From: a virus
Taxonomy: Duplodnaviria > Caudoviricetes
IMG/VR virus record: IMGVR_UViG_3300034126_000020
Span: 1 to 64,000 of that record
DNA length: 64,000 nt
Strand: one strand, 5' to 3'
Made by a program: the position numbers and the translations under genes. Below the pieces are notes generated by a model. That model had not been told where the DNA came from, ran no database searches, and was given only the letters and a program-made list of their open reading frames with translations. Each line of letters begins with the position of its first letter. Position 1 is the stretch's first letter. Below are positions 25,321-57,587 of the stretch, one piece after another.

Positions 25321-25755
25321 CGGCATAATAAAAATAAAAGCCATCCGCAGTGCATCCCCCAATGTTCTACCCGAAGACAGAATATTGGAGGCTGCACTAA
25401 AGATGGCATCACTCCGTGAGGAGTGGCACTTCGTGACGCCTGACGTCCCCTTTCAGCCGGATCGGGAGACATCATTGGCAGCGACGTGGAGCACACGCTC
25501 AGACGCGTCATCGTTTACCGTAACACACCACGGGTAGCGTTGGCGTGGGGCTACGGAACCGCAACAACCCTGACTATCACGACGAGTTCATCAGGGGCAA
25601 CGAAATAGTAGCTGAGGGCGCAATGCCCTCAGCTGTGTGGTCCGCCCAATGGGGGAGTGGGAGGGTGCCACGAGTGCGAGAGCAAACGCTCTCCTCTATT
25701 CTACGCAATCAAGCGCATCAGGATGCTGGATTATCTGTTAAAGAACAGGTCCTAC
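25321..25755 (-). ncRNA. Candidate ~430-nt structured ncRNA
   Basis: No credible ORF; at least 8 stems with G-U pairs favouring the minus strand; cUUCGg terminal hairpin + U-tract + TATGCCG; GTATGTA motif at the 5' end. Confidence 0.5.
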
Positions 25756-25778
25756 ATACTATACACGCTTTTTGCGTA

Positions 25779-27221
25779 TCAGAGGTCCATCAGCGCTTGC
25801 AGTGCACGGGTGTTGGTTTCCCCGTCACGGATGCAGGCCGCAACCCAGGTGTCGTAATGGCGAACCAGAACGTCACCGGCACGGTCAACAACCATGTTGG
25901 TGGTCAGGCAGAACTCATGGTTGACTTCGGCTTCAAGAGCAGCCTTGCCATCAGCGGTCAGGAGACCGTTGGAGTCCAGCCACGACATCAACTGACGCTG
26001 AATGCCAACAACGGCATCGACGTCTTGAACGCGAGTGGTGATGTTTTCGATGACGATCGGATCAGCAACCGATTCGGTCGAAACCTTTTTCTTCGGATTG
26101 CCTTCTTCATCCAGCTCGTCTTCTTCCGGATCGACTGGGTCGACCGGATCAGCATCAGGGTCCACTGGGTCCGCATCCGGATCTACTGGATCAGCATCGG
26201 CGTTGGCCGCTTCGATTTCAGCTTCCGGATCAACCGGATCTGCATCCGGGTCGACAGGGTCGACTGGATCAACAGGATCGGCGTCTGGGTCGATTGGATC
26301 GACCGGGTCAGCGTCAGGATCGACAGGGTCGATCGGATCTGCATCGGGGTCAACCGGATCAGTGCTATCGCCCAGCGCAGGATCTGCGTCAGGATCGGTA
26401 GGCACGTCGCCTTCGCCATTGTCCGGATTCGTCGGGGTGTCTTTCTCGATGGTGTTGGCAGTCACGCCGTCATCAAGTTTAGGACCCGACGGATTGTCGT
26501 CACGATGCTGCTCGATCAGATCACCGATACGGTCATCGCCTTCGCTACCAATAGAGGCAGCTTCAGCACGGGCCGATTCAGCGCTTTCTTCAGCAGCTTC
26601 TTTGGCAGTGGCAACCAACGCCTCGATACGGTCAACCGCATCAGACATCTCGCCCAGTACCTGAGTCTGCTCCAGGTCTTCCATGGAGACGCCCAGTGCA
26701 ACCAAGCCATCGCCCATGCGACGAGCGACGTTGAGCACCAGCGGACGGGCCGCTTCGATGGTCATGCCTTCCATGGAGATCACGGCGCGTACGGTGTCGA
26801 TGTTTTCCTTGAACAGACCCAGGGCTTCAGCCTTGAAGTTCAGGGATTCCAGCGATGCCGAGGTTTCGGAGTCACGGGTGGTGAACGGCACTGGCTCGTC
26901 GGAGTCGGCCTTGGCTTGCAGGGCTTGCTCGATGGCCTCGACTTCAGTCAGGCGTGGAGTGAGCACGTCCTGCATGATCAGTTCGACTTGAGCTTGAGGC
27001 TCAGTCACGCCATCGACGACCTGCAAGTCGGCTTGATGATCAGCTTGTTCGAGCACGTCTTCAGCCAACACCATGAAGGAAGAAGCGGAGTCGCTTTCCA
27101 ACGATGGAGTGAGCAGAAGTGCCCGGCCAACCGACATCAGGGCTTCGAGGCTGGTACGGTAGCCTTGAGCCTCATGGAGCATTTGAGCCGCGTTAGGTCG
27201 TGCGGTGGTATTGTGCGTCAT
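25779..27221 (-). CDS. Acidic internal head protein with S-x-E cleavage sites and a Pro-Asp repeat tract
   Basis: TSLE, PSLE, ASLE, ISME, VSME and VSTE sites; (DPVDPDA)n tract. Confidence 0.75.
   Translation of the reverse strand: MTHNTTARPNAAQMLHEAQGYRTSLEALMSVGRALLLTPSLESDSASSFMVLAEDVLEQADHQADLQVVDGVTEPQAQVELIMQDVLTPRLTEVEAIEQALQAKADSDEPVPFTTRDSETSASLESLNFKAEALGLFKENIDTVRAVISMEGMTIEAARPLVLNVARRMGDGLVALGVSMEDLEQTQVLGEMSDAVDRIEALVATAKEAAEESAESARAEAASIGSEGDDRIGDLIEQHRDDNPSGPKLDDGVTANTIEKDTPTNPDNGEGDVPTDPDADPALGDSTDPVDPDADPIDPVDPDADPVDPIDPDADPVDPVDPVDPDADPVDPEAEIEAANADADPVDPDADPVDPDADPVDPVDPEEDELDEEGNPKKKVSTESVADPIVIENITTRVQDVDAVVGIQRQLMSWLDSNGLLTADGKAALEAEVNHEFCLTTNMVVDRAGDVLVRHYDTWVAACIRDGETNTRALQALMDL
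26110..26410 (-). repeat. Coding tandem repeat (DP[V/I]DPDA units)
   Basis: Degenerate 9-21-nt in-frame units rich in GGATC/GGGTC on the plus strand; boundaries approximate. Confidence 0.85.
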
Positions 27222-27252
27222 GTTATGACCCTCTTCTCAGATATACTCCCCT

Positions 27253-30093
27253 TTGAGGAATATAGGAATGTACGCCAGCTTTTCGCGCATGTTGGGGATA
27301 ATCTCTGTCAAAGAGACTGACTCTCACATTATAGTGAACGGAATACCCGGTCTGCGCTTTTCAAAAGACATCTACAACTTTTGGAAAACCAGCAAGATCG
27401 CCAACAACATCTTTACTTCGGTGTCACGGTCCTCCGTTAAGTTTCCGAAGTTCTTCGCCATCGAAGTCCTGTACATCCTGGAGCAGTTACAGGATTCCCG
27501 ACGTACTTTCAGCGGACGACGGACATTGTCCAAGGTCGCCGAAGAGCTCGTCAAGTCCACATGGTTGCGCAACGTTGGCGTGACAGGCTTCAGCCCTCGC
27601 TTGAATTACAAGGCGTTGGATGACCTCAATGTCACATTATTTCAGCACCAACTTAATTTTTTACGGGAGTACGACCGGACTACGTTTGAATATGCCCTTA
27701 ACGGCATGCTCATGGACGTGGCAGCAGGTGGCGGTAAAACCATTACCAACTTTGCACTCGGTCATGTCCTCGGTGCGGATACGAAAGTGTTCATCGTACC
27801 GAAGAACTCTGTGTTCGACGTGTGGGTCAAGACGATCAAGATGCTCTTCAAGAAGGGCGTCCCGAACTATTGGCATAGTCTAAGTGGCGATGAGCCCAAG
27901 ATTGGTCAAGAGTACTACATCGTCCACTACGACTACATGGACAAGTTCCTCACTTTCGTGAAGCAGAACCGTGGCTCGTTCGGTAAGGTCTTTGTGGCCA
28001 TTGATGAATCGCACAACTTCAACGAACAGTCCGCTCGGACCCAGTTCTTGGTGGACATCTGCCATGGCCTTAAAGCACGCGATGTGGTGCACGCATCTGG
28101 TACGCCGTTCAAAGCAATGGGGTCTGAAGCGATCACCTTGCTCAAGACCGTGTGCTCGGACTTCACCGCTGAAGTAGAGAACTCCTTCCGTAAGCTGTTC
28201 GGTAAGGAAGCCAAGAAGGCGCTGGAGATCCTGGCCAACCGAATTGGTATCGTTTCCTTTAAGGTGCCCAAGCAGGACATCGAGACTCCGGGTGTGGATT
28301 ACCACGAAGTCAAGATCCCGCTCAAGAACGGTAACGACTACACCTTGGTGTCAGTGCGCGACAAGATGACTGGATTCATCGAGACCCGCCTGAAGTACTA
28401 CAAGGATGGCATGAAGGAGTACGAGGGTCTGTACGAACGCTGCCTGGCGATGCACGAGTCCAAACTCAAGTCGCCGTCTGAGCGTCAAGCGTTTACGCAG
28501 TACCAGACCTACGTCAAGACCATCCGTAAAGGCTACGACCCAGTCACCATGAAAGACATGGTGATGTACTGCAACCGGTACGAGCTGAAGAACATTGTTC
28601 CGTCACTGCCTGATACCTACCGTAAACCGTTCTTGAACGTGCGGGCGATCATCAAGTACGTGGAACTGAAGGTGATGGGTGAAGCGCTGTCCCAAGTACT
28701 GGGTCGGATGCGCATCCAGTGCCACCTCGACATGCTCCCTAACATGCCACTGGACACCATCATTGACAATGCCTTGTCGAAGACGGTGATCTTCACCAGT
28801 TACGTGGAAGTGGTCAAGGAATTGGAAGTCTTGCTCAAAGCCGCAGGGTACAAACCTCTGCTGGTGTACGGTGAGACCAACAAGGACCTGACGAATATCG
28901 TCAAGCAGTTCGAGAACGATCCTGATGCCAACCCATTGATCGCGACCTTCAAGTCGTTGTCGACGGCGGTGCCTCTGACCATGGCCAACACGGAGATCTT
29001 CACCAACTCCCCGTTCCGTGATTATGAGCGCACTCAGACCATCGCACGGGTAGACCGGATTGGTCAGAAGCATCGTTGCCATGTGCACGAGACCTTCCTC
29101 GATACCGGTCAAGAGCCGAACATCTCCACACGTTCCAAAGACATCATGCAGTGGTCCAAGCAGCAAGTCGAGGCGATCCTTGGCGTGCAGTCTCCGGACG
29201 ATCTGGAAGCGTCTCTGGAAGCGTTGGTTGAAGACCCACAAGCCAGTATCGACGACGGTGAGCAATTCATCGAGAAGCTGCGTGGGATGCTTCCTGTGGA
29301 CACCTTGCCTCAGGACGATGTTGCGTCCATGGAAGGGTTGTTCACCAGTGCCCCAACGGGCAACATCTATAAGCCGGCTGAACTCTTGAAGACGCTCAAG
29401 GAAACCTACCTGAACACTGGGTGGATGGCCAAGCGCAAATTCAAGGACGGCACGGTGCGGATGGAGAACGGTCATCTGGCCAACCTGAAGAACGCCGGGG
29501 AAACCAAACGGGTCCTCGACAAGTACGTCAGTGAGGCAAGAAACCGCAGCGCTACGTTGACCGGCATTGCCCGAGACTTCTTGGGTGGTGGGTGGAAAGA
29601 TGCTGGTAAGGTCGCCAAGTGGATGTCCCAGATCAAGAAGGACGACCGCTATGGCAAATACAGCAAGCAAGAGATTGACGTGATCGCCAAGTTTGGTGAA
29701 TTGCCCGGCATGACGAACTATCGTATCGGTGGTGTGGATACGGTGAACCGTCTGTCTGAGTCGTCTGATGTGACCGCACTGGCCAAACAGCTCGAAGCCC
29801 TTCTGGGTCACAGCGGGTCGTACATGTGGGGTCTGGTGGAAGAGAACTTCACTGAGAAGCGTCTCGGTGCTTTCCATGCTCAGTCCGATGATGACATCGA
29901 ATTGCAAGAAGACATCCGCACCAGTGGCCTGGCTCACGCTAAAGATGCACTGACGGTGTTCAAAGCCATTCGTAACACGGTCGAGAAGGTCGAGTCTGAT
30001 TTCCTCAACTCGCCTAAGGTACAAGTCTTCGAGCGTCACTTCGAAGCCACGTATCGTGCTTGCTGGGGTCTGTTGACCAAGTCCACCAAATAA
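27253..30093 (+). CDS. SF2 (SNF2/DEAD-like) helicase with a C-terminal head-protein-like extension
   Basis: DVAAGGGKT (motif I), IDESHNF (II), ASGTP (III) and QTIARVDRIGQ (VI); extra ~250 aa after ASLE/ASME. Confidence 0.88.
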   Translation: MRNIGMYASFSRMLGIISVKETDSHIIVNGIPGLRFSKDIYNFWKTSKIANNIFTSVSRSSVKFPKFFAIEVLYILEQLQDSRRTFSGRRTLSKVAEELVKSTWLRNVGVTGFSPRLNYKALDDLNVTLFQHQLNFLREYDRTTFEYALNGMLMDVAAGGGKTITNFALGHVLGADTKVFIVPKNSVFDVWVKTIKMLFKKGVPNYWHSLSGDEPKIGQEYYIVHYDYMDKFLTFVKQNRGSFGKVFVAIDESHNFNEQSARTQFLVDICHGLKARDVVHASGTPFKAMGSEAITLLKTVCSDFTAEVENSFRKLFGKEAKKALEILANRIGIVSFKVPKQDIETPGVDYHEVKIPLKNGNDYTLVSVRDKMTGFIETRLKYYKDGMKEYEGLYERCLAMHESKLKSPSERQAFTQYQTYVKTIRKGYDPVTMKDMVMYCNRYELKNIVPSLPDTYRKPFLNVRAIIKYVELKVMGEALSQVLGRMRIQCHLDMLPNMPLDTIIDNALSKTVIFTSYVEVVKELEVLLKAAGYKPLLVYGETNKDLTNIVKQFENDPDANPLIATFKSLSTAVPLTMANTEIFTNSPFRDYERTQTIARVDRIGQKHRCHVHETFLDTGQEPNISTRSKDIMQWSKQQVEAILGVQSPDDLEASLEALVEDPQASIDDGEQFIEKLRGMLPVDTLPQDDVASMEGLFTSAPTGNIYKPAELLKTLKETYLNTGWMAKRKFKDGTVRMENGHLANLKNAGETKRVLDKYVSEARNRSATLTGIARDFLGGGWKDAGKVAKWMSQIKKDDRYGKYSKQEIDVIAKFGELPGMTNYRIGGVDTVNRLSESSDVTALAKQLEALLGHSGSYMWGLVEENFTEKRLGAFHAQSDDDIELQEDIRTSGLAHAKDALTVFKAIRNTVEKVESDFLNSPKVQVFERHFEATYRACWGLLTKSTK

Positions 30094-30096
30094 CTA

Positions 30097-30124
30097 TCGG
30101 GGGCCTTCGGGTCCCCGCCTTTTA
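30097..30124 (+). terminator. Hairpin terminator
   Basis: GGGGGCC-TTCG-GGTCCCC followed by GCCTTTT. Confidence 0.7.
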
Positions 30125-30134
30125 AGGATCGACA

Positions 30135-31256
30135 ATGAAAAACGGTATTCTTGGTCAGTACATGATGTCTGACGCACGCGAAGCAGGTCGTAACCTGTTG
30201 GCCTCTCTGGAGTCCATTGAAGAGATGGAGATCGGCGAGGAGAAGAAAGCCGATGCGGTCGAGGAAGCCAGTTCTTTAGCATTGCGCGTTGGACGTGACT
30301 TCCCTGAAGACAGTGACATGCACCAGAGCATGTTCAAGGTTCTTGAGAACATGGGTGCAACTGAAGGCATCAATGTTTCCAATGAAGGACTGCTGTCTCT
30401 GGCATCTAAGCTGTCTGGGTTCTGGCGGAAACCGAAGCCTGACCCTACACAGATCTCCGATGAGGAGAAGACAGACTGGAGCAAACGCCAACAAGCGATC
30501 CTTCAGTTCATCAAAGACATGGAGAAGACTTACCTAAACTCTGTCTGGCTGGGTAAGCAGAAGTACGTTGAAGGTACGGTGCCTGCCAAAGACTTCTCGG
30601 GTGCGTTCCAACTCGACGGGAAACCTGTCACGGACCCACTGGCAAACATCGAACAGCACAAGAAGAACACGGGGGCGTTTGTCAAAGCATGGCATGGCGT
30701 ATTGGACAACTTGAACACTCAGGTGCAAGCGATCCATCAACGTACCGTGAAGGCCACTGCTGGTGCGGCAGAGGATGATGAAGCAGCAATCGAGATCGTT
30801 CGGAAAGCGGTTGATGAACTCAATGCGCTGCCGGACCCCACTGCCAAGTTCCCTTCGTTCTCCGGCACTGCGCTGTCCAACATGATCCCTGTCGTCAAGA
30901 CTCGCCTGAATGTGCCTTGGGTGAAGGTCGAAGCGAAGATGCCGATGACCCCAAGTGACACCCTGCCTGCGCTGGATAAAGACGGCGTGCTCAAGGTGGC
31001 TAAGTTGGTCGCTGAGATGATGAAGAACCCGAACTTCTGGCCATACATGGAATGGATCAAGTGGCTGGACTTCAAGGACGGTAGCAAGTTCAGCGATTGG
31101 ATCTACGACGCCGACAACAGCGTCTACATGGATTACTACCACCGCTTCTATTGGCAAGGTGCTAACGATGCGTGGTCGGATGACATCTTCGCATTGAACA
31201 GTCACTACCGTGTCATCATCGGCTTGATCAAGTGGATGGACCGCTCGATCAAGTAA
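30135..31256 (+). CDS. Internal head protein with S-x-E sites
   Basis: ASLE and VSNE|GLL propeptide-type sites; KTYLNSVWLGKQKYVEGTV resembles the helicase C-terminal extension. Confidence 0.7.
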   Translation: MKNGILGQYMMSDAREAGRNLLASLESIEEMEIGEEKKADAVEEASSLALRVGRDFPEDSDMHQSMFKVLENMGATEGINVSNEGLLSLASKLSGFWRKPKPDPTQISDEEKTDWSKRQQAILQFIKDMEKTYLNSVWLGKQKYVEGTVPAKDFSGAFQLDGKPVTDPLANIEQHKKNTGAFVKAWHGVLDNLNTQVQAIHQRTVKATAGAAEDDEAAIEIVRKAVDELNALPDPTAKFPSFSGTALSNMIPVVKTRLNVPWVKVEAKMPMTPSDTLPALDKDGVLKVAKLVAEMMKNPNFWPYMEWIKWLDFKDGSKFSDWIYDADNSVYMDYYHRFYWQGANDAWSDDIFALNSHYRVIIGLIKWMDRSIK

Positions 31257-31277
31257 ACAAAGAAAAAAGAAAGCACT

Positions 31278-31311
31278 GGAGAGCAGCCCTAGGGCTGCTC
31301 TCCTTATGCCG
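31278..31311. terminator. Bidirectional hairpin terminator + TATGCCG
   Basis: GGAGAGCAGCCC-TA-GGGCTGCTCTCC then TTATGCCG, between convergent genes. Confidence 0.85.
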
Positions 31312-31617
31312 TTAGTGCAGTATTGGAATGCCTTCACATTGCAGGTTGTCGAGGGTACGTTTTACCCAGTCTTCACTGGGTGGTCGTTTCTGATTGCGGA
31401 TGGCTACTTCTTCACGTTTGTCGGGGGTGACGAACAACAGGGACAGCGGGTAGTAACCGCACTGGCCTGTGAACGGGTTGCCATGACGGACCAACAGGCC
31501 CTTCGTGGTATCGGTCCACTTCAGTTCCTCAAGAGGAACGGAGATGTAGCTGATCCCCGTTTCGCCCTCGAGCTTCCGGAAGATCAGGCCGTTTTCTTCG
31601 TGATAAACTTGTGTCAT
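31312..31617 (-). CDS. Hypothetical protein
   Basis: Start MTQVYH at 31617 in an ATGA overlap with the upstream stop. Confidence 0.6.
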   Translation of the reverse strand: MTQVYHEENGLIFRKLEGETGISYISVPLEELKWTDTTKGLLVRHGNPFTGQCGYYPLSLLFVTPDKREEVAIRNQKRPPSEDWVKRTLDNLQCEGIPILH

Positions 31618-32267: not shown

Positions 32268-32299
32268 GACATGCTCCTTAGCATGGGGTAGGGGTAGGG

Positions 32300-32662: not shown

Positions 32663-32672
32663 GGGGCTCTCC

Positions 32673-32837: not shown

Positions 32838-32854
32838 GATGAAGCTCCTTACTA

Positions 32855-32960
32855 GGTTAGGTTGAGTACTGTATTCCTTACTCACCGCTATCATGTATTG
32901 TTGAAAAGAATTCGAATCGAATCGGCATAAAGGCCAGGAGCACTCGCTCCTGGCCTATGC
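32855..32960 (-). promoter_or_regulatory. Terminator-promoter cassette (copy 1)
   Basis: Hairpin + TTATGCCG followed by CAATACATGAT; near-duplicate at 37186-37278. Confidence 0.6.
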
Positions 32961-37185: not shown

Positions 37186-37278
37186 GGTTAGGTTGTTACT
37201 CACTGCAATCATGTATTGTTTCAAAAAGTTTGAATCGAATCGGCATAAGAGCCAGGGCAGTTGCCCTGGCTCTATGTC
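37186..37278 (-). promoter_or_regulatory. Terminator-promoter cassette (copy 2)
   Basis: AGAGCCAGGGCA/TGCCCTGGCTCT hairpin + TTATGCCGATTCGATTC...CAATACATGAT. Confidence 0.6.
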
Positions 37279-37616: not shown

Positions 37617-38498
37617 CGGCAAAACAAAAAAAGAAAGAAGTCTTGGGGCAATCGTTCGGACGCACCTCAATGGGAGATCAACCCCACCATAGGAACGACT
37701 ATCGACGATGCCCCGTAACCTTGTGTAGCGCTTGTCTTCCTCATCCCTCGAGCCCTTTCACCAAGTGCGTCATCGCGTAGTGCGAGGCCTTGCGTTAATC
37801 GGTCGTAGGTTTGGATCAGACTGGAGGCCATTGCCATCCAATTCAACCGAACTCAATCGGAATCAATAGTCATCAAATGTGTTCACTGACACGGACTATT
37901 GATTAGCTCTCGTGCACCTTAGGCACGCGCTGGATAGTCCGCTCAGACACTGCCGTGCGATGTCCCTCTGCTGGTTTCACAACGCACGCTTGCGACGCTC
38001 GTGCCATGAAGAGTACACCTTCTAAGCGAGCCATTTCTGGCACCGCCCTTGGGAGAAGACCTTTCCCCAAGTCCTGATGGTGTATCTTATCCGACGACGC
38101 AATTGCGCTCTTCTCTTGCTTAGCGAACGCACGATTGTGCTCTTCCGCTTGGGCAGACAAGGTGACAGCTAGGGCCAACGCCACGAGAGTGGAGAAGCCG
38201 CGGGTTCTGATCAGTAGCTCCTTAGAGGCTTAATTGAACGCTCATGAGTTATCAATGGTCTCCAGTGCTACGGTGCACCTACCGTTCCACGCGCCTTATG
38301 CGTGAGGTAGGGCACCGAAGTCACTGAAACGGATGAAACGGTACCGGTAATGCGCGGCGGGTCATCGGTCTCATTCGGCGGCGTCACGAGTGACACGGCC
38401 TTTAGAAGACGTTGTACTGACGACCAGACGCGGCGCACGGAACCTAAGATCGATCCGAACAATGGCACTATCCTTAGACGATGTCACAGTGCTACTAC
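37617..38498 (-). ncRNA. Candidate ~880-nt structured ncRNA (or long leader plus small ORF)
   Basis: About 970 bp between well-supported genes with only one weak ORF; several clear stems; GTATGTA at the 5' end; hairpin + long U-tract + TTTTGCCG at the 3' end. Confidence 0.4.
37903..38184 (-). CDS. Possible small exported protein (doubtful)
   Basis: Signal-peptide-like LVALALAVTLSAQA; no ATG start; lies inside the candidate ncRNA. Confidence 0.3.
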   Translation of the reverse strand: MALALAVTLSAQAEEHNRAFAKQEKSAIASSDKIHHQDLGKGLLPRAVPEMARLEGVLFMARASQACVVKPAEGHRTAVSERTIQRVPKVHES

Positions 38499-38550
38499 AT
38501 ACAACTCGAGCCAAACGTATTTATTTACCCGGAGTCCTTATGTCCTTGAT

Positions 38551-47546: not shown

Positions 47547-48686
47547 TTACTCGATTACGTTGCGGACTTGTTTCTTTGGGATCTGGACCGACGTCAGCAG
47601 GTCATAAGCGACGGTGGACGCATGGTCACCTTTCAGACCCAGACGGATCTTCGGGTAAGCCAGTACGATCACGCCGGCTTCGTCTTTGCTGATCTTGCCA
47701 CTGACTTCAATCGCCTGCTTCTTGAAGAAGCCACGCCATGCCTCTGGCAACTCGTGACGATTGATACGCAGGTCGAACATGTCACCGTCCGACGCCTTGG
47801 TCCAAAACGACTCGTACGCCTTCGAGAGAGACAAAGCAGCATCGGCTGTCTTCAACTGGATCTCGAGACCGTAATAGAAGTCGTTGGAGGATGGCTTACG
47901 CTCATTGAACGTCGGTGCAAAGTGCTTCTCTGCCTCGATTGGCGGATTGAGGTACGCTTGCAGTGTCAGGTGGTACGCCAGATCGGCACGACCTGCTTTG
48001 GTCAGGTGGCCTTTCTGTTCAGCGAACCATTGCGGCAGGTTCTTGCGAATCCATGGACGCAGTGCAATCTGGTCACGGATCGATTCAGCCTTGTGGTCAC
48101 CGAAGGTGTCGGAGTACAGCAGCAGACTGCGAGAGGCATCAACCATCTCTTCGGTCATGTTGTACGAGTCAGGTACGATGACGTGAGTCTTGCCGACCTG
48201 TTCCAAATCACGCAGGCACGGCGGTAAGGAATCAATCAGACACAGAATCGTCGGATCGTCATTCGCTGCGGACTTCAACTTGTCCAGCCATTCTTCAGCA
48301 TTGAAAGGGTTAGGTACAGCCGCGGCTTCTTCGACCCATGTCGGGACTGGGCGGTCCCATTCACCGGTGGTGTCCATCAGGTGCTCATCCAGAGGATAGA
48401 GGAGCATGCCCACAAGGACCTTGTTGTAGCGAACGAAGTACTTGCCACCATGTCCGGTGGCGTGCGCCAGCACTTCGATGTTGGCACGATCGGGTAACTG
48501 ACTCAGTGTCTCAGTCTTCATGATGACTTCGAGCAAAGCGTCCATATTACTTTCAAGTTTGATCCCGTCGCCAAACGAGGCTTGCGTGTCGCCGACAGAG
48601 ACGGCGGGATGAAACAGGTTTTGAAGTGCCATGGGTGAGTTCTCTTTGGTTGACATACTTGTTGAAGGGTTCGTTTCTTTTGACAT
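47547..48686 (-). CDS. Hypothetical protein
   Basis: 379-aa ORF; the start may be 48632 (MALQN). Confidence 0.7.
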   Translation of the reverse strand: MSKETNPSTSMSTKENSPMALQNLFHPAVSVGDTQASFGDGIKLESNMDALLEVIMKTETLSQLPDRANIEVLAHATGHGGKYFVRYNKVLVGMLLYPLDEHLMDTTGEWDRPVPTWVEEAAAVPNPFNAEEWLDKLKSAANDDPTILCLIDSLPPCLRDLEQVGKTHVIVPDSYNMTEEMVDASRSLLLYSDTFGDHKAESIRDQIALRPWIRKNLPQWFAEQKGHLTKAGRADLAYHLTLQAYLNPPIEAEKHFAPTFNERKPSSNDFYYGLEIQLKTADAALSLSKAYESFWTKASDGDMFDLRINRHELPEAWRGFFKKQAIEVSGKISKDEAGVIVLAYPKIRLGLKGDHASTVAYDLLTSVQIPKKQVRNVIE

Positions 48687-48721
48687 GCGGCATAAACGCC
48701 GCCCCGAAGGACGGCGACGAA

Positions 48722-49352: not shown

Positions 49353-49359
49353 CCTCGCC

Positions 49360-50526
49360 TTATAAAACGGCAGGTGAACCCAGCGCAATGAAGTTACCTT
49401 CAAAGTCCAAGTAGTACGCCGTATAGTTCGGTCCTTCAGTGTTCTTGTACAGTCGACCCGGCGGCAACACAGCACTGTTGTTGGCCTTGCCTGCGTTGAC
49501 CCAAGTGCCGGAGGTGTTGTTCCAGCGCCAGACAGTCAGGTCACGGGTGTCGACGATGTCAGCCTTGGACGTAGGAAGTTTGTTGTTCTTCCAACTGGCC
49601 GCTGGCTGAGAGACCGATGCGTAACCGACAGCGCACTTGCTCAGGAAGAGAGCAGGCAGACTGCCCGACCATGCCACTGCGTTAGGCCATGCCGAACCAT
49701 CAGCACGTGTGCACGTGATCTCGATCAACCCCGAGACACTGCGCTTGGCGTTCAGCTTGATGCCCGGGGCAAGGTCTGCGCCATTGAAGCCCTGAGCAGG
49801 AATGCCCAGTTCTTTGACTGCCAGCACTTGCTGCCCTTGAGCAGTAGTCTGACCTTGGTTGACGATTACCAATAGCTTTGGAGTCTGCCCGTTAGCCACT
49901 TGTCCAAGGGCGTTCATGCCGCCGCCGCTCACCATGACAGTCACGGTGTGCTCTTTATCGCCGACCTTCTTGAAAGCCAAGACCATGCCGATGCCATCGT
50001 CGTCGTTGTTATTCGACTTCATGATGGTCTCGAACTCGTAGCTGTCAAAACGATCCTGACTGACAATGCCGATCACACTGACACTGTTGATGGTCGAAGC
50101 GATACTGTCAGTAGCGCTGTCGTACGACCATCCGTCCAGTTCAGCAGGTACGCTAGGAAAGAGTCCATTGGTGCCATGACTGAACCGAGACCATTTGTTG
50201 TAAACGGTGTCGAAAGAGACTGTACTGCTTTTGAGGTTGGCGATAGCGGTGTCATCCGCCGCCATGCGGATCTTGGTCAGTAGTTCGCCACTGACAAAAG
50301 ACATAGGTGTACCTTCTTCACCGAAGAATGGCAACTCACCTTTACGGCCGTTGATCTGACCGAGGTTCTCTTGCACGACTGCCGCTTGAACTTGAGCCAA
50401 CGTCTTACCGCCCAACATAGCCGCATCAGCAGCTTGTGCAGTGGCATCAAGCTTACTGGAAATCTTTGTACGAATTGCTTTAAGGATGCCATCAAATTTG
50501 ACAGCCAACTGCGATGGGGTAGCCAT
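49360..50526 (-). CDS. Tail-fibre/receptor-binding-like virion protein
   Basis: ADAAMLGGKTLAQV fibre motif; beta-rich C-terminal part with DDDGIGMVLAF; start MATPSQ at 50526, preceded by GTATGTA. Confidence 0.65.
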   Translation of the reverse strand: MATPSQLAVKFDGILKAIRTKISSKLDATAQAADAAMLGGKTLAQVQAAVVQENLGQINGRKGELPFFGEEGTPMSFVSGELLTKIRMAADDTAIANLKSSTVSFDTVYNKWSRFSHGTNGLFPSVPAELDGWSYDSATDSIASTINSVSVIGIVSQDRFDSYEFETIMKSNNNDDDGIGMVLAFKKVGDKEHTVTVMVSGGGMNALGQVANGQTPKLLVIVNQGQTTAQGQQVLAVKELGIPAQGFNGADLAPGIKLNAKRSVSGLIEITCTRADGSAWPNAVAWSGSLPALFLSKCAVGYASVSQPAASWKNNKLPTSKADIVDTRDLTVWRWNNTSGTWVNAGKANNSAVLPPGRLYKNTEGPNYTAYYLDFEGNFIALGSPAVL

Positions 50527-50575
50527 TTGTCTGTCCCTGTTGAAAGACGGAGATACATACAATTACAAAAAATAA

Positions 50576-50597
50576 AAGGAGGGCCGAAGCCCTCCCG
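50576..50597 (-). terminator. Hairpin terminator
   Basis: GGGAGGGC-TTCG-GCCCTCC followed by TTTTATTTTTTG on the minus strand. Confidence 0.8.
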
Positions 50598-50600
50598 TTA

Positions 50601-50951: not shown

Positions 50952-50958
50952 GATTGAG

Positions 50959-51477
50959 TTACCCTGGGTGTTTCTCGTAGGTGTTGAAGACCAGTCGGTT
51001 ATCGACGTAAGAGGTCTCTACACACTTGTAACCATTCCAGACAGGATCTTCATCCTCTGGTTTGAGTACACGTGCCAACTTGCCTTCAAGAGGATGGTTG
51101 AGGACCATGGTCCGATAGATGGTGTCAGCTTTACCGATGAGTTCATTGAAGATGCCAGCACCTCCGATGACAAAGATCTCTGTCATGTCGAGTTTACGGG
51201 CTTCAGCAAGAACCTGCTCGATGCTGTTCAGAAACTGTACGCTGTCCATACGGCCGAGACGAGGGAGACCTTTCCCGCGAGTCAGCACATAATGGAATCG
51301 ACCCGGCAACAGTCTAGGGAGGCTGTCGAAGGTGTCCATGCCCATGAGTAGCGGCTTGCCCTTCGTCAACTCCTTAAACCGTGCCAGGTCTTCGGGGTGA
51401 TGCCACGGAAGTGGATGGGGGCCGGCATAGCCGATCGCCCCATCTTCGTTCTGGGCATAGATCAGATTGATCTTCAT
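50959..51477 (-). CDS. folA: Dihydrofolate reductase
   Basis: GAIG..LPWHHPEDLARFKELT, LMGMDTFDSL..LPGR, and IFVIGGAGIF motifs. Confidence 0.95.
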   Translation of the reverse strand: MKINLIYAQNEDGAIGYAGPHPLPWHHPEDLARFKELTKGKPLLMGMDTFDSLPRLLPGRFHYVLTRGKGLPRLGRMDSVQFLNSIEQVLAEARKLDMTEIFVIGGAGIFNELIGKADTIYRTMVLNHPLEGKLARVLKPEDEDPVWNGYKCVETSYVDNRLVFNTYEKHPG

Positions 51478-51492
51478 GCCTAGTGCTGCTCC

Positions 51493-52101
51493 TTAAACGG
51501 TGGTTTCAACACCATCGACGACAACCTTGACATCAGGCGTCTTGACGTTGGCCTTCTCTTCGGCCTCTTTGCGCTCGCGCAGGATGCGGATCAGTTTCGA
51601 TGCATCCGGCTCGATGTAGAAGTTCAGCGAGGATTCGAAGATGGCGAACTGCTCGTCGTCTTTGAACACCACGATCACTTCCAGGCCGACGCCTTTACCA
51701 GCCGCTTGCCACTGACGCACGAAAGCATGAGTACGCTCGAACTTCTCGTACTCGCCGAGCACCACCTTGGAGACGGCAGTGGACTCTTTCAGGAACATGT
51801 CTTCGTCGATGCTGGCAGCGCGCAGGATGGCAGTCAGTTCCACCTGGCTACGACCGGGCAACGAAGTCCACGGCGATTGCTGGGGAGCGGTCAGACCGGC
51901 GAGGTACTGAGCCACGACTTCCGAATCAGCCCCGAGGGCCGACAGGTCACCGCGGTACAGGACCTTGGTCAGCAGGTTGTCGCGCTTGTAGTGAACGCGG
52001 ACGTTCTGGTTGCCATGGCCGGCTTTACCGGCGAGGGTCAGTTGAACGTCGTCGGTCGCCAGTGGCTTGAGCGCGTTTACGATGGTGTCAAAGATAGTCA
52101 T
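51493..52101 (-). CDS. Hypothetical protein
   Basis: 202-aa ORF, TGATG-coupled to the upstream gene. Confidence 0.7.
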   Translation of the reverse strand: MTIFDTIVNALKPLATDDVQLTLAGKAGHGNQNVRVHYKRDNLLTKVLYRGDLSALGADSEVVAQYLAGLTAPQQSPWTSLPGRSQVELTAILRAASIDEDMFLKESTAVSKVVLGEYEKFERTHAFVRQWQAAGKGVGLEVIVVFKDDEQFAIFESSLNFYIEPDASKLIRILRERKEAEEKANVKTPDVKVVVDGVETTV

Positions 52102-52556
52102 CAGTAGGTCTTCTTCGGCAGGATGTTGTTGACATTGATGTGGTCGCCGTACTCACGCAGTTGCGTGTAGATGTAGCCGACGGCTTTGTGGTCATCGTCG
52201 AGGATCAGGAGCATCAGGCCTTGTTGTTCCTCAGGCGTGAGTTCCTGGATGACGTGGACTTCGTGGTTGTCGAAGTGACCGATCAGGGAGTTGACTTGAT
52301 CAGTACGCTTGAAGTGATCCGGGTTGGTGATAGCGCCTTCAGGCAGGTCGTACAAGTACTGACCAATACCCGGTGTCACACCCAGAGCATAGCGGTAATG
52401 CTCCGAGCGTGCAGCGGCCAGCAACACCATCGAGCGGACCGTGTCGACCACCATGGACTGGATACCCCAGCCCAATGCCTTGTTGTGATCCGGAGCCTTG
52501 GCAACGGCTTCAGTCACGGTGAGGGGGTGATCGAACATGATCATTTCATTGCTCAT
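52101..52556 (-). CDS. Hypothetical protein
   Basis: 151-aa ORF overlapping the ligase stop. Confidence 0.65.
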   Translation of the reverse strand: MSNEMIMFDHPLTVTEAVAKAPDHNKALGWGIQSMVVDTVRSMVLLAAARSEHYRYALGVTPGIGQYLYDLPEGAITNPDHFKRTDQVNSLIGHFDNHEVHVIQELTPEEQQGLMLLILDDDHKAVGYIYTQLREYGDHINVNNILPKKTY

Positions 52557-54579
52557 TGGTTTCTCCAGTTGCGGTGAGACCGTTATCGGTCGTCAGGATC
52601 GTGGTAAGGGAGTTGGGGTTGGTGAACTTGATCCCATCTTGGATGAAATGAAGTTCTTTGGCCTTCTTGACTTTGTCAGGTCCGGCACCTACGCCCGCAT
52701 AGAGGATGTCGGTGTTCTTGCTGACAGACTTCGTCAACTTACCACCCCGTGAGATCACGTCATCTTCCATTGCGCGTCGTGTCAAACCATCGAAGTCCGA
52801 CCCACTGACGACAACTGTCTTGCCAGCCAGGTCTTGGATCTCAGCTTTCGGGATCACCACATCGGTGTACGTAAAGACGGAGTCCAGAGCGTGCAGGTCA
52901 ACGTCGTTAGCAACGTAGGTCAGCATGATGCTTGTTGCTACCGCTGGGCCAACGTCGTCCACTTCCTGCAACGTCTTGAAGCTAGCCTTACCCAAGTCAC
53001 GGAAAGATGGGAATCGAGCTGCCAGAGCCCTTGCAGTGCTGTCCCCGACATCCGGGATGCCTACCGCGCGCAGCGCTTTGTAGAACGGCAGCTTCTTGCA
53101 ACGGTTCAGACCGGCGATGATCTTGTCCGTCATGGCTTCACCCAAGCCAGCGGCGTAGAAGTCCTGCTCACCCAAGTAGAACAATGAGCTGAACGACCCC
53201 AAAGACCCGACAGCAATCAAGGACTCGACCGCAGCAGGGCCAAGGTTCTTGACATCGATGCCATCACGGCTCACGAAGTACGCCATCCGGTTGATAAGCT
53301 GGGCCGGACAGTTGATCAGGTTGGTGCAGAACAGCTTCACCCCTTCTTCTTTGCCCACATCCCGCTTGGTCACCTTGGAACCACAGCACGGACACTCGGT
53401 CGGTGTGTGAATCAGACCGTGTTGATCCGTGCGCAGTGCCAGCACCACGCTTTCGATCTTCGGAATCACGTCACCACGACGAGAAACCACAACGGTGTCA
53501 CCGATCCGCAGGCCTAGACGCTCGATCTCTTCGAAGTTGTGCAGTGTGACACTGGAGATCGTGACCCCACAGAGCTTCACTGGACGAATCTTCGCTACTG
53601 GAGTCAACACCCCAGTCCGACCCACCTGCACATCCACACTTTCCAGCACGGTTGTGGCTGTCTGAGCCTCGAACTTGTACGCTGTCGCCCAACGAGGGGA
53701 GGTAGAGCGCTGTCCAAGGGTCTGACGTTCAGCAGGTTTGATGAGTTTGATCACCAAGCCGTCGATGTCGTGCCCTAAGTTCGGTCTGTCTTCGGTCACT
53801 TCTTCGATTGTCTCGATGATGTTACCGATGTCACTGGTCAACCCTTCCCAAACCGGCAAAGAGATGAAGAACTGAGACTGAACTTCCTCGCTGAAGAAGG
53901 ACATGGGCACTGAGATCGGTCCGGCAGCAGTATGGATGACCGCATCGTAGGCAATGAAACGAATTCCCATGCCTTGAAGCTGCGCACCTTCCTTCTTCCG
54001 GGCCAAACCGGCCACCATGTTGCGTGGATTGGCGTACACCTTCTTGCCCTGCGCTTCACGCAGCTCACAAACACGTTTAAAGTGCTTGTGTGGCACTACG
54101 GCTTCACCGCGGATCTCCACTTTGCCATCGTAACCCTTGAGTTCTTCTGGCACACCTTCGAAGTACACGGCATTTTCAGTGATGTCATCACCAATGTCGC
54201 CATCGCCACGGGTAGCGGCGTACTTCAGCTTGGTTTTGTTGTACAGCAAGCCAATTGCAAGGCCATCGTGCTTGAGTTCCATCTGCGCATACGCAGCATA
54301 ACCCAAACCGAGGCACCAATCTGTCAACTCTTCCTCGTTATAGACGTTACCGAGGCTGAGCATGGGCGTCAGGTGTTTGATCTTCTCAAACCCACCGTCA
54401 GAAACGGCCCCGACTTGGTTCAACGGCGACAACGGGTCGTCGGTTTCCCCTTCCAGCTCACGCAACTCAGCTTTGAGGGAGTTGTAGACTTCATCATCAA
54501 CGTCTGACTCCCCCTCGTTGTAGTAGAGGTGGTTCAGACGACTGATCTCTGCTCGCAGAGCTTCGATACGGTTGTCCAT
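52546..54579 (-). CDS. ligA: NAD-dependent DNA ligase
   Basis: YY..D..YD/N, H..PMLSL, ELKHDG (KxDG), TRGDG, EIRGE, NPRN, DGLVIK, PRWATAYKF, VGRTG, TLHN, Zn finger CPCC..C..C, HhH and BRCT. Confidence 0.97.
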   Translation of the reverse strand: MDNRIEALRAEISRLNHLYYNEGESDVDDEVYNSLKAELRELEGETDDPLSPLNQVGAVSDGGFEKIKHLTPMLSLGNVYNEEELTDWCLGLGYAAYAQMELKHDGLAIGLLYNKTKLKYAATRGDGDIGDDITENAVYFEGVPEELKGYDGKVEIRGEAVVPHKHFKRVCELREAQGKKVYANPRNMVAGLARKKEGAQLQGMGIRFIAYDAVIHTAAGPISVPMSFFSEEVQSQFFISLPVWEGLTSDIGNIIETIEEVTEDRPNLGHDIDGLVIKLIKPAERQTLGQRSTSPRWATAYKFEAQTATTVLESVDVQVGRTGVLTPVAKIRPVKLCGVTISSVTLHNFEEIERLGLRIGDTVVVSRRGDVIPKIESVVLALRTDQHGLIHTPTECPCCGSKVTKRDVGKEEGVKLFCTNLINCPAQLINRMAYFVSRDGIDVKNLGPAAVESLIAVGSLGSFSSLFYLGEQDFYAAGLGEAMTDKIIAGLNRCKKLPFYKALRAVGIPDVGDSTARALAARFPSFRDLGKASFKTLQEVDDVGPAVATSIMLTYVANDVDLHALDSVFTYTDVVIPKAEIQDLAGKTVVVSGSDFDGLTRRAMEDDVISRGGKLTKSVSKNTDILYAGVGAGPDKVKKAKELHFIQDGIKFTNPNSLTTILTTDNGLTATGETNEQ

Positions 54580-54593
54580 GGTTGACTCCTAAC

Positions 54594-55046
54594 TTACTTC
54601 GGGCTTACCAGCAAGCGAGCCAGTTGGAATACGCGCCGACCCTTTGTAGGATCGCCACGCTCGATGTCGACACTGAGGGCTACCAGCCGCGGAGACGTTA
54701 ACAGGTCATTGTTGACATGGCGTCCACCGTTGTAGTGCACCCTCCCATGTAATACCCAATGTTCATTTTCCTTTACAAACTCGATCGGCTGGAAGAGACC
54801 GATCTGCTTGGACTTCAGGTAACTGTAGATGTCACCGACACCCGAATTGCCCCAGTTACGCTTAGGCCAAGAAGAAAAGATAGGCAGGAAGTCATCCGGC
54901 ATCAACCGGCGGACCTCCTCATCACTCAACGACTCACAGCCTGGCACAACGACGCAGGTAATACTGTCGTGAGCAGGTGCGCTGTTGAATCGATCATGGG
55001 CATCAAAGATGGTGATCTCCTCGAACAGCTTTATTTGTCCCGTCAT
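54594..55046 (-). CDS. Hypothetical protein
   Basis: Likely start MTGQIK at 55046 in an ATGA overlap. Confidence 0.6.
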   Translation of the reverse strand: MTGQIKLFEEITIFDAHDRFNSAPAHDSITCVVVPGCESLSDEEVRRLMPDDFLPIFSSWPKRNWGNSGVGDIYSYLKSKQIGLFQPIEFVKENEHWVLHGRVHYNGGRHVNNDLLTSPRLVALSVDIERGDPTKGRRVFQLARLLVSPK

Positions 55047-55393
55047 TTGATGTCTCTGGGGTTGAGGCACAGATAGTCCGTCTCACAACTCTCCTTGACT
55101 TGTTTCAGGAGCGCTGCACGGGCCTTCTTAGCTTTGATCGGATACTCGAACAACCGGATCTCAGCATCCTTGGCGTAAAGCCCGTTAAGGAGCTTACAGG
55201 GATGCTTACCGATGGCGAGCAAGGAAAGTTGTTTGTCTACTTCAGATGAAACGTTCTCGCTTTGGCCCAGATAGAAACGCCCAGTCGCTACATGCTCTAA
55301 CATGTAGCAACCTTGGTTAGTGGTATCGCTTCGTTTACTGCGGCCCGAGGAGGAGTGTAGCCATTTGACAACATTCACCAGGGCGTCAGTCAT
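55043..55393 (-). CDS. Stand-alone GIY-YIG-like nuclease
   Basis: GCYMLEHVATGRFYLGQS (GIY-x-YIG variant), later H and terminal LN. Confidence 0.7.
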   Translation of the reverse strand: MTDALVNVVKWLHSSSGRSKRSDTTNQGCYMLEHVATGRFYLGQSENVSSEVDKQLSLLAIGKHPCKLLNGLYAKDAEIRLFEYPIKAKKARAALLKQVKESCETDYLCLNPRDIK

Positions 55394-55394
55394 T

Positions 55395-55763
55395 TCAGGT
55401 CTCGGTTTTCATAAGGACGAAGGTCAGGCGTGGTTGGCCTTCCAGTGATTCGGTGATGAAGTCCACACTGCCATCAGGCTGAGTGAAGTTTTCACAACCA
55501 ACTGCCGTACGATAGGCGCCGTTCATGAAGAAGAATGTGCGCAGGAACTCCATCGCTACGTGATAGCAGTCGAAGTCAGGACCAGGACCCATCCAGCCTA
55601 CGTGGGAGCGGAACAGTTTGGCCTCACTGACATCGGTGGTGTACTCGAGCATTGGCTTACCGCCTTCACCGGCACCGAATGTCTTCATGTACTTCTTTTC
55701 TTCGCCTTTGGCTTGAAAGCACACGCGGGAGTTGTAGCAGGCTGGCAGATTGCTCTGTGTCAT
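55395..55763 (-). CDS. Hypothetical protein
   Basis: 122-aa ORF with AGGAG SD. Confidence 0.65.
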   Translation of the reverse strand: MTQSNLPACYNSRVCFQAKGEEKKYMKTFGAGEGGKPMLEYTTDVSEAKLFRSHVGWMGPGPDFDCYHVAMEFLRTFFFMNGAYRTAVGCENFTQPDGSVDFITESLEGQPRLTFVLMKTET

Positions 55764-55773
55764 GGTGATACTC

Positions 55774-55983
55774 CTAAGCCCACTTGTCGGTGATGGCTTT
55801 CAGTTTGGCGCCCTTCATCACTTCCTTGTACGTGTCGACCTGCTTGAGCTGATCGAACCCCTTACGACACTCCAAGAGCGTACGGGCTTCTTCCGTGGAC
55901 AGAACTTCCCCTTTATTGACGCGCTCCAGCAGGTTGTTCAGGCTGCGCTGGATGTTGGTGATGTTTGCGTCGATGTCTGCCAT
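55774..55983 (-). CDS. Small hypothetical protein
   Basis: 69-aa coiled-coil ORF. Confidence 0.6.
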   Translation of the reverse strand: MADIDANITNIQRSLNNLLERVNKGEVLSTEEARTLLECRKGFDQLKQVDTYKEVMKGAKLKAITDKWA

Positions 55984-56054
55984 GATAATCTCGATGATGG
56001 TGTACTGGTAGTTGTGCGGGAGGCACCCTGCCTCCCTGTTCTTGGTGTATTTGC

Positions 56055-56804
56055 TTAGCGGCAGAACTGCTCGTAACTGACCACTGGGGCTTTCTTCTTG
56101 GTGGCAAAGACGTACTGATCCGCTTGAGGCAAGATCATGACGCCACGTTCACCCATGTCGGCGAACTTGTTCCACCAGCTACCATCTTTGTTGATGCCCA
56201 CCACAGTGATCGGATCACCCTTGATGTCGATGATAGTCTTCTGTTCGATGTCCTTGTCCAGACGGAAGTGAACACCGAACAGCGAGCGTTCCAGATAGGA
56301 GAACTCACGTTTGCCAGTGATCTCGACGCCCAGCTTCTCGTCAACGAAAGAGCAGGTGCGGAAGTCCACCATACGTTTACCCGGCTTGGTAAATTCGTAA
56401 TAGCCGTACCCCGCAGCCCCCGCCACGAGTAACACGACTGCGCTGATGATCAGGATGTAAGTCCGGACCACGGCACGCTTTACCTTCTGCCCACGAGTGA
56501 GGACACGTTCACGAGCATTGGCACCTGGATCGCGCCGAACCATGAGTCGACGCAGATCAACGGAGTCAGTGCCTTCACGTTGCTCAGGTGGAAGAGTCGC
56601 AAGTAAACGCAACTTCTCCACATCAGACATCAACATCGCACCCGAGTTGGTCTGGGCGGTTGCTGGACAATCGTCAGTAGCATCGTGGTAGCTGTAAATC
56701 TCGATCAGGTTACCGTGTTCGTCTTTCAGTGTTTCCACCACAGGGCGACGTTCGGTCATGTCCAAAGAGTCACCTGGGTTAGAATCGTGGAGGTTGTTAC
56801 GCAT
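56055..56804 (-). CDS. Single-pass membrane protein
   Basis: Central TM TYILIISAVVLLVAGAAGYGYY; AAGGGG SD. Confidence 0.7.
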   Translation of the reverse strand: MRNNLHDSNPGDSLDMTERRPVVETLKDEHGNLIEIYSYHDATDDCPATAQTNSGAMLMSDVEKLRLLATLPPEQREGTDSVDLRRLMVRRDPGANARERVLTRGQKVKRAVVRTYILIISAVVLLVAGAAGYGYYEFTKPGKRMVDFRTCSFVDEKLGVEITGKREFSYLERSLFGVHFRLDKDIEQKTIIDIKGDPITVVGINKDGSWWNKFADMGERGVMILPQADQYVFATKKKAPVVSYEQFCR

Positions 56805-56848
56805 TACAGTTTCCCCTTACTTTCGGTTATGGTTGTAGTTCCACGATT

Positions 56849-56920
56849 ATAATGTATTGCCTTATAATTTTTAATTACAATCGGGAAAGCGGCATAAAGG
56901 CGGGACTAGCCCGCCTATGC
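56849..56920 (-). promoter_or_regulatory. Terminator + TATGCCG followed by the CAATACATTAT promoter-like motif
   Basis: AGGCGGG-ACTAG-CCCGCCT hairpin flanked by CGGCATA and TATGC; AT-rich spacer. Confidence 0.6.
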
Positions 56921-57331
56921 TCAACGACGATAGCCAAGATCGGCGTGTGGATCATCTTTCTCTGCCAAGCCTTCAAACACATTGCTGAAGCCTACTGGCA
57001 TGGAGGACTTCAACACCCGGACCTCGTCGTGACTGGGTTTAGGACGGGACATGAGCTTCTTCATCCAGTCCACGTTGAACCCGATGAACTCACGCTTGCC
57101 TTTGACCGAGAGTACGCCACGACGGACATTGAACCGGTTGGCGTAGCTCTTCATGTTTTCAACGGGACCGTTCAGGACAGCGATGAAGACCTCGTTCTCC
57201 AAGTCCGGCATGAGCAGATGAGGCAGGGCTTCGATCAGGTGGGTCTCGGTGATCCCTAACCCAGCAGCAATCGTTAACGCCTCGTCTTCAGAGTCGGCAA
57301 TGATGATACTGATACCGTTTTCATTACGCAT
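56921..57331 (-). CDS. Hypothetical protein
   Basis: Likely start MRNENG at 57331 with AGGAG SD. Confidence 0.65.
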   Translation of the reverse strand: MRNENGISIIIADSEDEALTIAAGLGITETHLIEALPHLLMPDLENEVFIAVLNGPVENMKSYANRFNVRRGVLSVKGKREFIGFNVDWMKKLMSRPKPSHDEVRVLKSSMPVGFSNVFEGLAEKDDPHADLGYRR

Positions 57332-57357
57332 TAGATTAACTCCTGAGAAATGTCTAT

Positions 57358-57507
57358 CGGCATAAATGGGCAGCATGAGTTTGAGCCCATGCTGCCCGGT
57401 ACAGGCGCCGTTGAAACGTATGCTACTGGCTCCCGCCGATGCTAAACCGTTTCGGGTTAAGCGTGTGCTGGATCACCCCCTCACTAGACAGAATCTACTG
57501 CCTGTAC
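57358..57507 (-). ncRNA. Candidate small RNA (~110-nt body plus terminator)
   Basis: 8-bp closing stem GTACAGGC/GCCTGTAC (57507-57500 with 57406-57399), two inner hairpins, a 10-bp terminator stem (57368-57397) and TATGCCG. Confidence 0.55.
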
Positions 57508-57587
57508 ATACAATAGGATCGCCCTTATTAGTTTTTGGTTACGAGGGTAATGTATCGTTTGAGTAAAATCAAATCCACTATAAACAG

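Follow-up and report, generated by a model that had tools for sequence, protein, structure and literature searches.

A conserved TATG core, probably a phiKZ-type phage promoter, heads two structured RNAs and a partly coding unit in a DT01-like jumbo phage

The stretch of DNA analysed here (64,000 nt, referred to as the window) is the start of a virus record 276,810 bp long (G+C, 54%; IMG/VR IMGVR_UViG_3300034126_000020, here G000), the closest named relative of which is the phiKZ-like jumbo phage Pseudomonas phage pPa_SNUABM_DT01 (DT01). On its minus strand, the heptamer GTATGTA (TACATAC on the plus strand) occurs at 25753-25759, 38496-38502 and 57505-57511, in each case at the head of a conserved interval (units A, B and C). 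A fourth copy at 50554-50560 stands upstream of a gene matching virion-structural and tail-fibre PHROGs, and a fifth at 8889-8895, conserved in 4/4 genomes, sits 160 nt upstream of a major head gene (6469-8730). An earlier note on this DNA had listed the first four copies at exactly these positions, omitting the fifth, had rightly called the gene behind the fourth tail-like, and had read the three intervals as a co-regulated set of structured, non-coding RNAs (ncRNAs) poor in open reading frames (ORFs).

Conservation was assessed against DT01, three IMG/VR genomes of 276 kb (G001, G002 and G003), one IMG/VR fragment and six metagenome contigs, with identities to G000 over the regions studied of 94% for G001, ~70% for G002 and 82-93% for G003. 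DT01 was the only relative in the phage collection, a single metagenome scan contributed one new lineage (L075), two variants (L076, complete, and L072, partial) and three near-duplicates, and a search of bacterial genomes returned no relative. All fall within a single narrow clade of about four independent lineages, and no similarity to phages outside this DT01-like clade was found for the structured RNAs. Subunits of both a virion and a non-virion multisubunit RNA polymerase have been assigned in DT01 (PMC8541153). The genome under study likewise carries split beta/beta' polymerase domains in separate ORFs, with RNA_pol_Rpb2_6 above cut-off and a weak match to Rpb1_2.

Across these genomes, only the TATG core of the heptamer is constant. 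The number of copies in the window does not exceed what chance would give (5 found, 2.72 expected; at least 5 in 16 of 100 shuffles), and a genome-wide count, which the earlier note had proposed as a check, gave nine copies whose intergenic bias is clear against an 8.5% baseline (P = 4e-4) and vanishes once scored against the general TATG baseline (P = 0.17). The four copies beyond the window are not conserved. Within it, 4/5 copies are conserved as TATGTA and 5/5 as TATG, in genomes only ~70% identical, and all five are oriented along local transcription. TATG is invariant in four genomes at A, B, C, 50554 and 8889, and the longer TATGTA is retained at A, B and C in DT01, G002 and G003. Conservation does not extend to all seven bases at each site: at 50554 the three relatives all have TATGAC, with T+2 and A+3 lost and TATG alone kept, and G-4 is replaced by C at unit B in DT01 and G003. 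Nor is the motif confined to RNA units, as had been proposed, since conserved TATGTA precedes protein genes in all four genomes at four further sites (Table 1), GTATGTA itself also stands at 50554 and 8889, and GTATG-type heads precede virion as well as replication genes. TATG as such is 4.9 times denser between genes (197 copies in 26 kb) than in coding sequence (384 in 251 kb). At A, B and C the conserved block starts at the motif (up to eight related genomes), and the lengths of the intervals are nearly constant from genome to genome (A, 433-443 nt in complete copies; B, 882-906 nt in five genomes; C, 153-157 nt).

Unit A is a genuine conserved, structured and ORF-free RNA (RNA A) of no known family. 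The 9-mer at its head is invariant in eight genomes or contigs and the DNA upstream diverges, the bases between the preceding stop codon and GTATAGTATGTAGGACCTGTTCTTT being variable and the GTATAGTATGTAGGACCTGTTCTTT block invariant. The consensus fold of eight sequences (RNAalifold) comprises 123 pairs in 17 helices, with 94.6% of cells paired, and 37 of the 123 pairs have changed on both sides, against 15.7 +/- 2.6 in shuffles (0/500) and 3-8 in slid controls. The relatives share no reading frame across RNA A, whose indels do not come in multiples of three; a 67-aa ORF (25308-25511) that we considered measures 21 codons in G002 and 33 in DT01, and is not a gene. In the predicted fold, an invariant UCCUC (25422-25418) located 335 nt downstream pairs with the 5' GUAGGA (25755-25750), and a terminal 68-nt hairpin with a UUCG loop (~25340-25407) comes next; the long-range helix never varies and so receives no support from covariation. 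Invariant loops include CACUCCCCCAU and GCCACUCCUCA. Rfam 15 gave no match anywhere in the window at gathering score, and only chance-level ones to RNA A at E up to 10. The gene downstream encodes a DUF488-N3a protein. Just upstream of the 9-mer, the stem of a small hairpin varies yet stays complementary (CGC/GCG, GGC/GCC, CCGT/ACGG, CTGAC/GTCAG, GGCA/TGCC).

RNA C, from the third unit, is also a genuine conserved, structured and ORF-free RNA outside any known family. Its head, (C/G)TATTGTATGTACAGGCAG, is invariant in six genomes or contigs, and the sequence upstream is unalignable. The core is closed by an invariant 8-bp helix joining GUACAGGC (57507-57500; nt 1-8) to GCCUGUAC (57406-57399; nt 102-109), with an interior predicted to form a three-way junction. 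At 89-94% identity to DT01 and G002, the core lies at about the 99th percentile of 150-nt genome windows, and such high conservation leaves little variation for covariation (5/45 pairs changed on both sides, against 2.1 in shuffles). A covariance-model search found a single copy per genome and no paralogues, and Rfam gave only chance-level matches even at E = 10. A 17-codon frame inside C is broken by a 2-nt insertion in relatives and was discarded, and the 40-aa coding sequence (CDS) that the DT01 annotation places across RNA C on the opposite strand (L003:1531-1653) is probably spurious. The gene downstream encodes a 136-aa protein. Further upstream, the divergent region preceding C contains a perfect 13-bp hairpin (57586-57615) that scores as a terminator both ways; no gene enters it on the minus strand.

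Unit B differs from the other two in that, judging from its conserved small ORFs, it is not purely non-coding. The frame of ORF1 is open in 5/5 genomes (71-86 codons), with indels in multiples of three; each genome has an AAGGA box and a start codon for it, and the DT01 annotation lists it as PA10_00292 (L002:1249-1482). ORF2, for which the DT01 annotation has no CDS, is also open in 5/5 genomes, its indels are multiples of three, and its C-terminal motif ERT[IV][QK]RV is conserved; the excess of third-position substitutions is mild in both ORFs. The first canonical start codon of ORF2 is a GTG at 38184. Upstream of it, however, an invariant TAAGGAG (38218-38224) is followed after 6-8 nt by an invariant ATC (38209-38211), 9-10 codons before the GTG, and the intervening codons specify a positively charged signal-peptide start in all five genomes. 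This ATC is a candidate for a conserved AUC initiation codon. The first 300 nt of B contain 17 compensatory pairs against 5.3 in shuffles, overlapping ORF1, and the AGUAGC at the 5' end is able to pair with a GCUACU between the Shine-Dalgarno box and the ATC. The tail of B has no conserved frame, and 11/83 of its pairs have changed on both sides (5.1 +/- 1.4 in shuffles); matches of unit B to Rfam 15 at E up to 10 were at chance level only. Of the three ORF-poor structured intervals recognised earlier, A and C therefore hold as ORF-free, conserved and covarying RNAs, and B, with its two frames open in 5/5 genomes, does not.

Table 1. Position of the motifs, RNAs and reading frames discussed (window coordinates; positions above 64,000, and those so marked, are genome coordinates)
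Feature	Position	Strand	Remarks
Fifth GTATGTA	8889-8895	-	Within the last codons (Q-Y-V-K) of a conserved 181-aa gene, 8856-9401
Conserved TATGTA	17978		Upstream of a 105-aa gene
TATGCCG of unit A	25321-25327	-	After the T-rich tail of RNA A
RNA A	25328-25755	-	~430 nt, ORF-free, ~17 helices; unit A including tail, 435 nt
Promoter-like 9-mer TATAGTATG	25755-25763	-	Heads RNA A; predicted +1 = G at 25755
Small hairpin, A-rich loop	25764-25778	-	Between stop of upstream 480-aa gene and 9-mer
AT-rich extended motif	32889-32918, 37207-37240; genome 127905, 182322, 203225, 263137	- (window sites)	
Unit B	37617-38498	-	882 nt; two small ORFs and structured tail
Tail of B	37625-37902	-	~280 nt; ends in long hairpin, T-run, TGCCG
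ORF2 of B	37903-38211	-	nt 288-596; 99-108 codons, signal-peptide-like N-terminus
ORF1 of B	38268-38468	-	nt 31-231; 66 aa from GTG start, 66-77 aa in relatives
Head of unit B, TTGTATG	38498-38504	-	Predicted +1 = G at 38498
Conserved upstream block GGGTAAATAAATACG	38516-38530	-	About -32 to -18 of unit B
TATGCCG-CATG sites	48660-48700; genome 102605, 146977, 178714, 240203		
GTATGTA before virion-structural/tail-fibre-like gene 49360-50526	50554-50560	-	Relatives read CCTATGAC
3' hairpin of C	57358-57397 (hairpin 57368-57397)	-	12 bp, then AUUUAUGCCG (TATGCCG at 57358-57364)
RNA C core	57399-57507	-	109 nt; whole unit 57358-57507, 150 nt
Promoter-like 9-mer TATTGTATG	57507-57515	-	Heads RNA C; predicted +1 = G at 57507
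Conserved TATGTA	74003		Upstream of a tail-fibre or decoration-like gene
Conserved TATGTA	148064		Upstream of a helicase gene
Conserved TATGTA	232378		Upstream of a 126-aa gene
RNA E	L078:131-419 = genome G000:C1:184330-184618	-	Outside window; ORF-free, conserved, head GTATAGTATG
Tail-sheath divergent region	genome 195152-195311 (L079)		Holds AATAGTATG (+) and TGGTATG (-)
TTC(T/C)TT(T)AAC	8871-8881, 25737-25745; genome 73983-73993, 231090, 234795		

The non-virion RNA polymerase of phiKZ requires T-3 A-2 T-1 G+1 and initiates at the G, with further undefined determinants on both sides (PMC4666361; Yakunina et al. 2015); these four bases are bound, on the non-template strand, by its beta-like subunit, in a complex whose transcription bubble opens from about -8 (PMC12809450; de Martin Garrido et al. 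2026). Because only TATG is constant at the sites described here, and because it matches the phiKZ rule, we consider it probable (roughly 0.7) that the phage's own non-virion RNA polymerase uses a phiKZ-type promoter here, in which GTATGTA occupies -4 to +3 and TATG is the start signal. By homology with phiKZ, transcription would begin at the G. The heptamer itself is ordinary, a TATG start signal of the kind already known, next to which two of the bases are incidental. As the earlier note had supposed, the motif behaves as a start signal would: conservation sets in there, the closing helix of each unit begins at +1 (A and C) or +3 (B), and the split polymerase genes are present. No sigma-70-like host promoter was found on the RNA strand at A, B or C. 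The likeness to the phiKZ late promoters of this polymerase thus covers the four bases at the predicted start, the homologous split polymerase genes and the intergenic enrichment of TATG, as well as flanking bases that matter without a strong consensus. What sets the DT01-like lineage apart, apart from its starts being predicted ones, is the use of two extended forms, hairpin-YTATGCCG and ATWGTATG/TATWGTATG.

The first of these forms is linked to the 3' ends of the three units. A, B and C all end in a hairpin and a T-rich stretch, followed by TATGCCG at A and C or TTTTGCCG at B (37617-37624), as had been noticed before. This ending is not a mark of the three units, though, but a genome-wide module: TATGCCG has 36 intergenic copies in the genome, mostly right after a GC hairpin, against 14 coding ones, and 26-28 intergenic copies in the relatives. 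Under the classical criterion for an intrinsic terminator, a GC-rich hairpin is directly followed by at least 5 T in 8 bases; the 3' ends of A, B and C fall outside it and fit instead the phage's own hairpin-(T)TATGCCG module. Many TATGCCG copies run straight into CATG (TATGCCGCATG...), and if the G were +1 at these sites, the leaders would be only ~5 nt long. A further, AT-rich extended motif, GATTCGAA-N6-8-TTCAACAATACAT(G/T), has at least six occurrences, mostly right after hairpin-TATGCCG, and is a candidate early promoter for the virion polymerase by comparison with the long AT-rich early consensus of phiKZ.

The second extended form leads to another RNA. A, C and a locus outside the window, RNA E, share (G/C)TAT(A/T)GTATG, with 9/10 bases in common from -9 to +1; none of the three loci contains an ORF. 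TATWGTATG has exactly three sites in each of four genomes, always A, C and E (0.85 expected), and covers -8 to +1, which would correspond to the region melted in the phiKZ complex. The head of E, identical to that of RNA A, comes directly after a terminator hairpin, so that E needs a promoter of its own. RNA E is 89% identical to DT01 and G002, has a fold z of -3.0 and only chance-level matches to Rfam 15 at E up to 10, and ranks with C among the most conserved DNA of the genome. It is also rich in purines: 189 nt of it contain 12 GGA, where the genome averages 2.8 (sd 1.65, maximum 13), and it could be a CsrB/RsmZ-like sponge, even though the genome lacks a CsrA gene of its own. TROVE/Ro60 and reverse transcriptase genes, sought together with CsrA as partner proteins in the genome, were likewise not found, nor did ARAGORN detect any tRNA or tmRNA in the window. 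Full-length duplex folding among A, B, C and E gave z between -1.8 and +1.5, a method not meaningful at such lengths.

The head of unit B is unlike those of A, C and E, reading T(G/C)TATGTAG with GGGTAAATAAATACG upstream; a similar head stands before the tRNA operon at genome position 131133. At B, TATGTAGTAGCACTGTGACATC is invariant in five genomes apart from position -4, and the GGGTAAATAAATACG block is kept in G000, G003 and DT01 and variant in G002. In phiKZ, middle promoters carry an element AAanTTACc centred near -24, some of them with TATG at the start (PMC4666361). A conserved AAATAC(G/A), lying at about -24 to -18, precedes the TCTATGT or TTGTATGT of B and the tRNA operon, a resemblance limited to two loci. 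As a general rule, the -24 element was rejected, since a loose pattern matched 9/203 intergenic and 5/378 coding TATG sites and is too ad hoc beyond B and the tRNA operon.

These elements suggest a scheme in which the phage's non-virion polymerase would start at the G of TATG, yielding transcripts that begin with GUA, from promoters heading three conserved minus-strand units, RNA A, RNA C and unit B. The first transcribed bases would be locked at once into the closing helix, which would also shield the RNA from 5'-end-dependent decay. Transcription would then stop or pause at the module of hairpin, T-rich stretch and (TA)TGCCG, and the gene that follows would rely either on the module's own TATG or on read-through. 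When the RNAs are expressed, late according to the earlier note, and what they do, for which that note named nucleus function, RNA export, packaging or protein sponging, are likewise predictions. Several points weigh against a promoter-and-terminator reading of this kind. No strong terminator separates the upstream gene from the motif at A and B, where read-through followed by processing is possible; termination at the hairpins of A, B and C would have to proceed without the classical hairpin-plus-U-tract arrangement; the intergenic statistics rest on a home-made gene caller that missed ~16 small genes, patched by hand after a conservation check; and, as TATWGTATG was defined from the same three sites and only 0.85 copies are expected, the lack of other copies says little about specificity.

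The proposal of the earlier note, in which GTATGTA or TATWGTATG would be a dedicated signal for an ncRNA regulon, apart from the promoters of protein genes, draws on the TATGTA common to all three window units, on the exclusive sharing of the 9-mer by A, C and E in four genomes, and on the exceptional conservation of C and E. We nevertheless regard it as unlikely, because the heptamer is conserved before protein genes too, because ATWGTATG also precedes the tail sheath and DnaB-like helicase genes, whose heads AATAGTATG and GATAGTATG are one mismatch away from the 9-mer, because B has ORFs and a different head, and because the 9-mer was chosen post hoc. Overall, the earlier observation is partly confirmed, and its interpretation partly supported. 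A narrower variant, marginally more credible and still improbable, would make TATWGTATG a dedicated strong form of the non-virion polymerase promoter that co-expresses a stable-RNA regulon of the DT01-like clade (A, C and E), acting in trans on host or phage expression. If this were true, A would be a 435-nt RNA of a new class with ~17 helices, C a 109-nt closed three-way-junction RNA, and the GGA-dense E could titrate host translational regulators of the RsmA/RsmN type. Accidental recurrence of the heptamer in AT-richer intergenic DNA would agree with its ordinary count in the window (5 against 2.7, a number reached by 16% of shuffles) and with the lack of conservation of the four outside copies. 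This explanation is already disfavoured by the retention of the window copies at ~70% identity and by their common orientation along transcription, and we give it very little weight.

Two further alternatives concern the origin and the role of the RNAs. The motif could mark a place where RNA is processed, or no more than the first helix, with A and B as structured 3' parts cleaved from upstream mRNAs; the lack of a GC-rich terminator between stop codon and motif (20 nt at A, 50 nt at B, 10 nt at C in DT01) and the early onset of the closing helix would suit such an origin. E, however, carries the head of A yet follows a terminator, C in the window sits between divergently oriented genes and has none upstream on its own strand, and TATWGTAT is invariant although it would fall outside the mature RNA, all of which makes cleavage improbable as the general explanation. 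A question of function rather than of the motif is whether A and C are cis-acting leaders, attenuator- or riboswitch-like, of the DUF488-N3a and 136-aa genes. This has a real, if minority, chance of being correct: the order of promoter, structured RNA, hairpin and gene is that of a leader, and the tail of RNA A reads TTTGCCG, without TATG, in 5/6 other complete copies (G001, G003, L076, G002 and DT01), so that the DUF488 gene may depend on read-through. On the other hand, in G000 both A and C have their own TATGCCG behind them; the terminator stem of C is wholly different in DT01, where it is followed by TTTTGCCG, and no conserved alternative pairing between core and terminator was visible by eye; and 435 nt with 17 helices are far above known leaders. 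Synteny is uninformative on this point because all genomes are collinear.

A phage precedent for such leaders exists. phiKZ and 201phi2-1 make abundant, short, structured RNAs through premature termination in 5' untranslated regions (5'UTRs) (Putzeys et al. 2023/2024, doi 10.1101/2023.10.13.562163; PMC11512511), and the jumbo-phage literature otherwise says little so far beyond phiKZ expressing non-coding RNAs (PMC13282480). The units described here share with those 5'UTR RNAs a promoter followed by a close terminator upstream of a gene, conservation among related jumbo phages and an obscure function, and differ in that RNA A is far larger (435 nt, ~17 helices) and that A and C are known from sequence alone. 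In size, helix number and strength of covariation, RNA A is comparable to the large Rfam RNAs of obscure function GOLLD, ROOL, OLE, HEARO and raiA. Some of these families are phage-borne. Unlike them, RNA A fits no Rfam 15 model (E = 10) and belongs to one narrow clade only. A, C and E are thus concrete ncRNA candidates, with A large and complex enough to interest the field of large structured RNAs, and the comparison corrects public annotation in two places, the DT01 40-aa CDS across C and the missing CDS for the signal-peptide ORF of B. For jumbo phages of the nucleus-forming type, it also offers a working set of promoter rules in a clade not studied before, consisting of hairpin-YTATGCCG, ATWGTATG and the AT-rich early-like motif.

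Two minor observations were made around conserved TATG sites. The sequence TTC(T/C)TT(T)AAC recurs 6-15 nt downstream of several of them, including those of RNA A, the 8889 copy, the gene at 74003 and two others, and is possibly a downstream promoter or 5'-leader element. Finally, the divergent intergenic stretch of 160 nt in front of the tail sheath gene shares 94-95% identity with DT01 and G002 and is thereby among the most conserved DNA of the genome.

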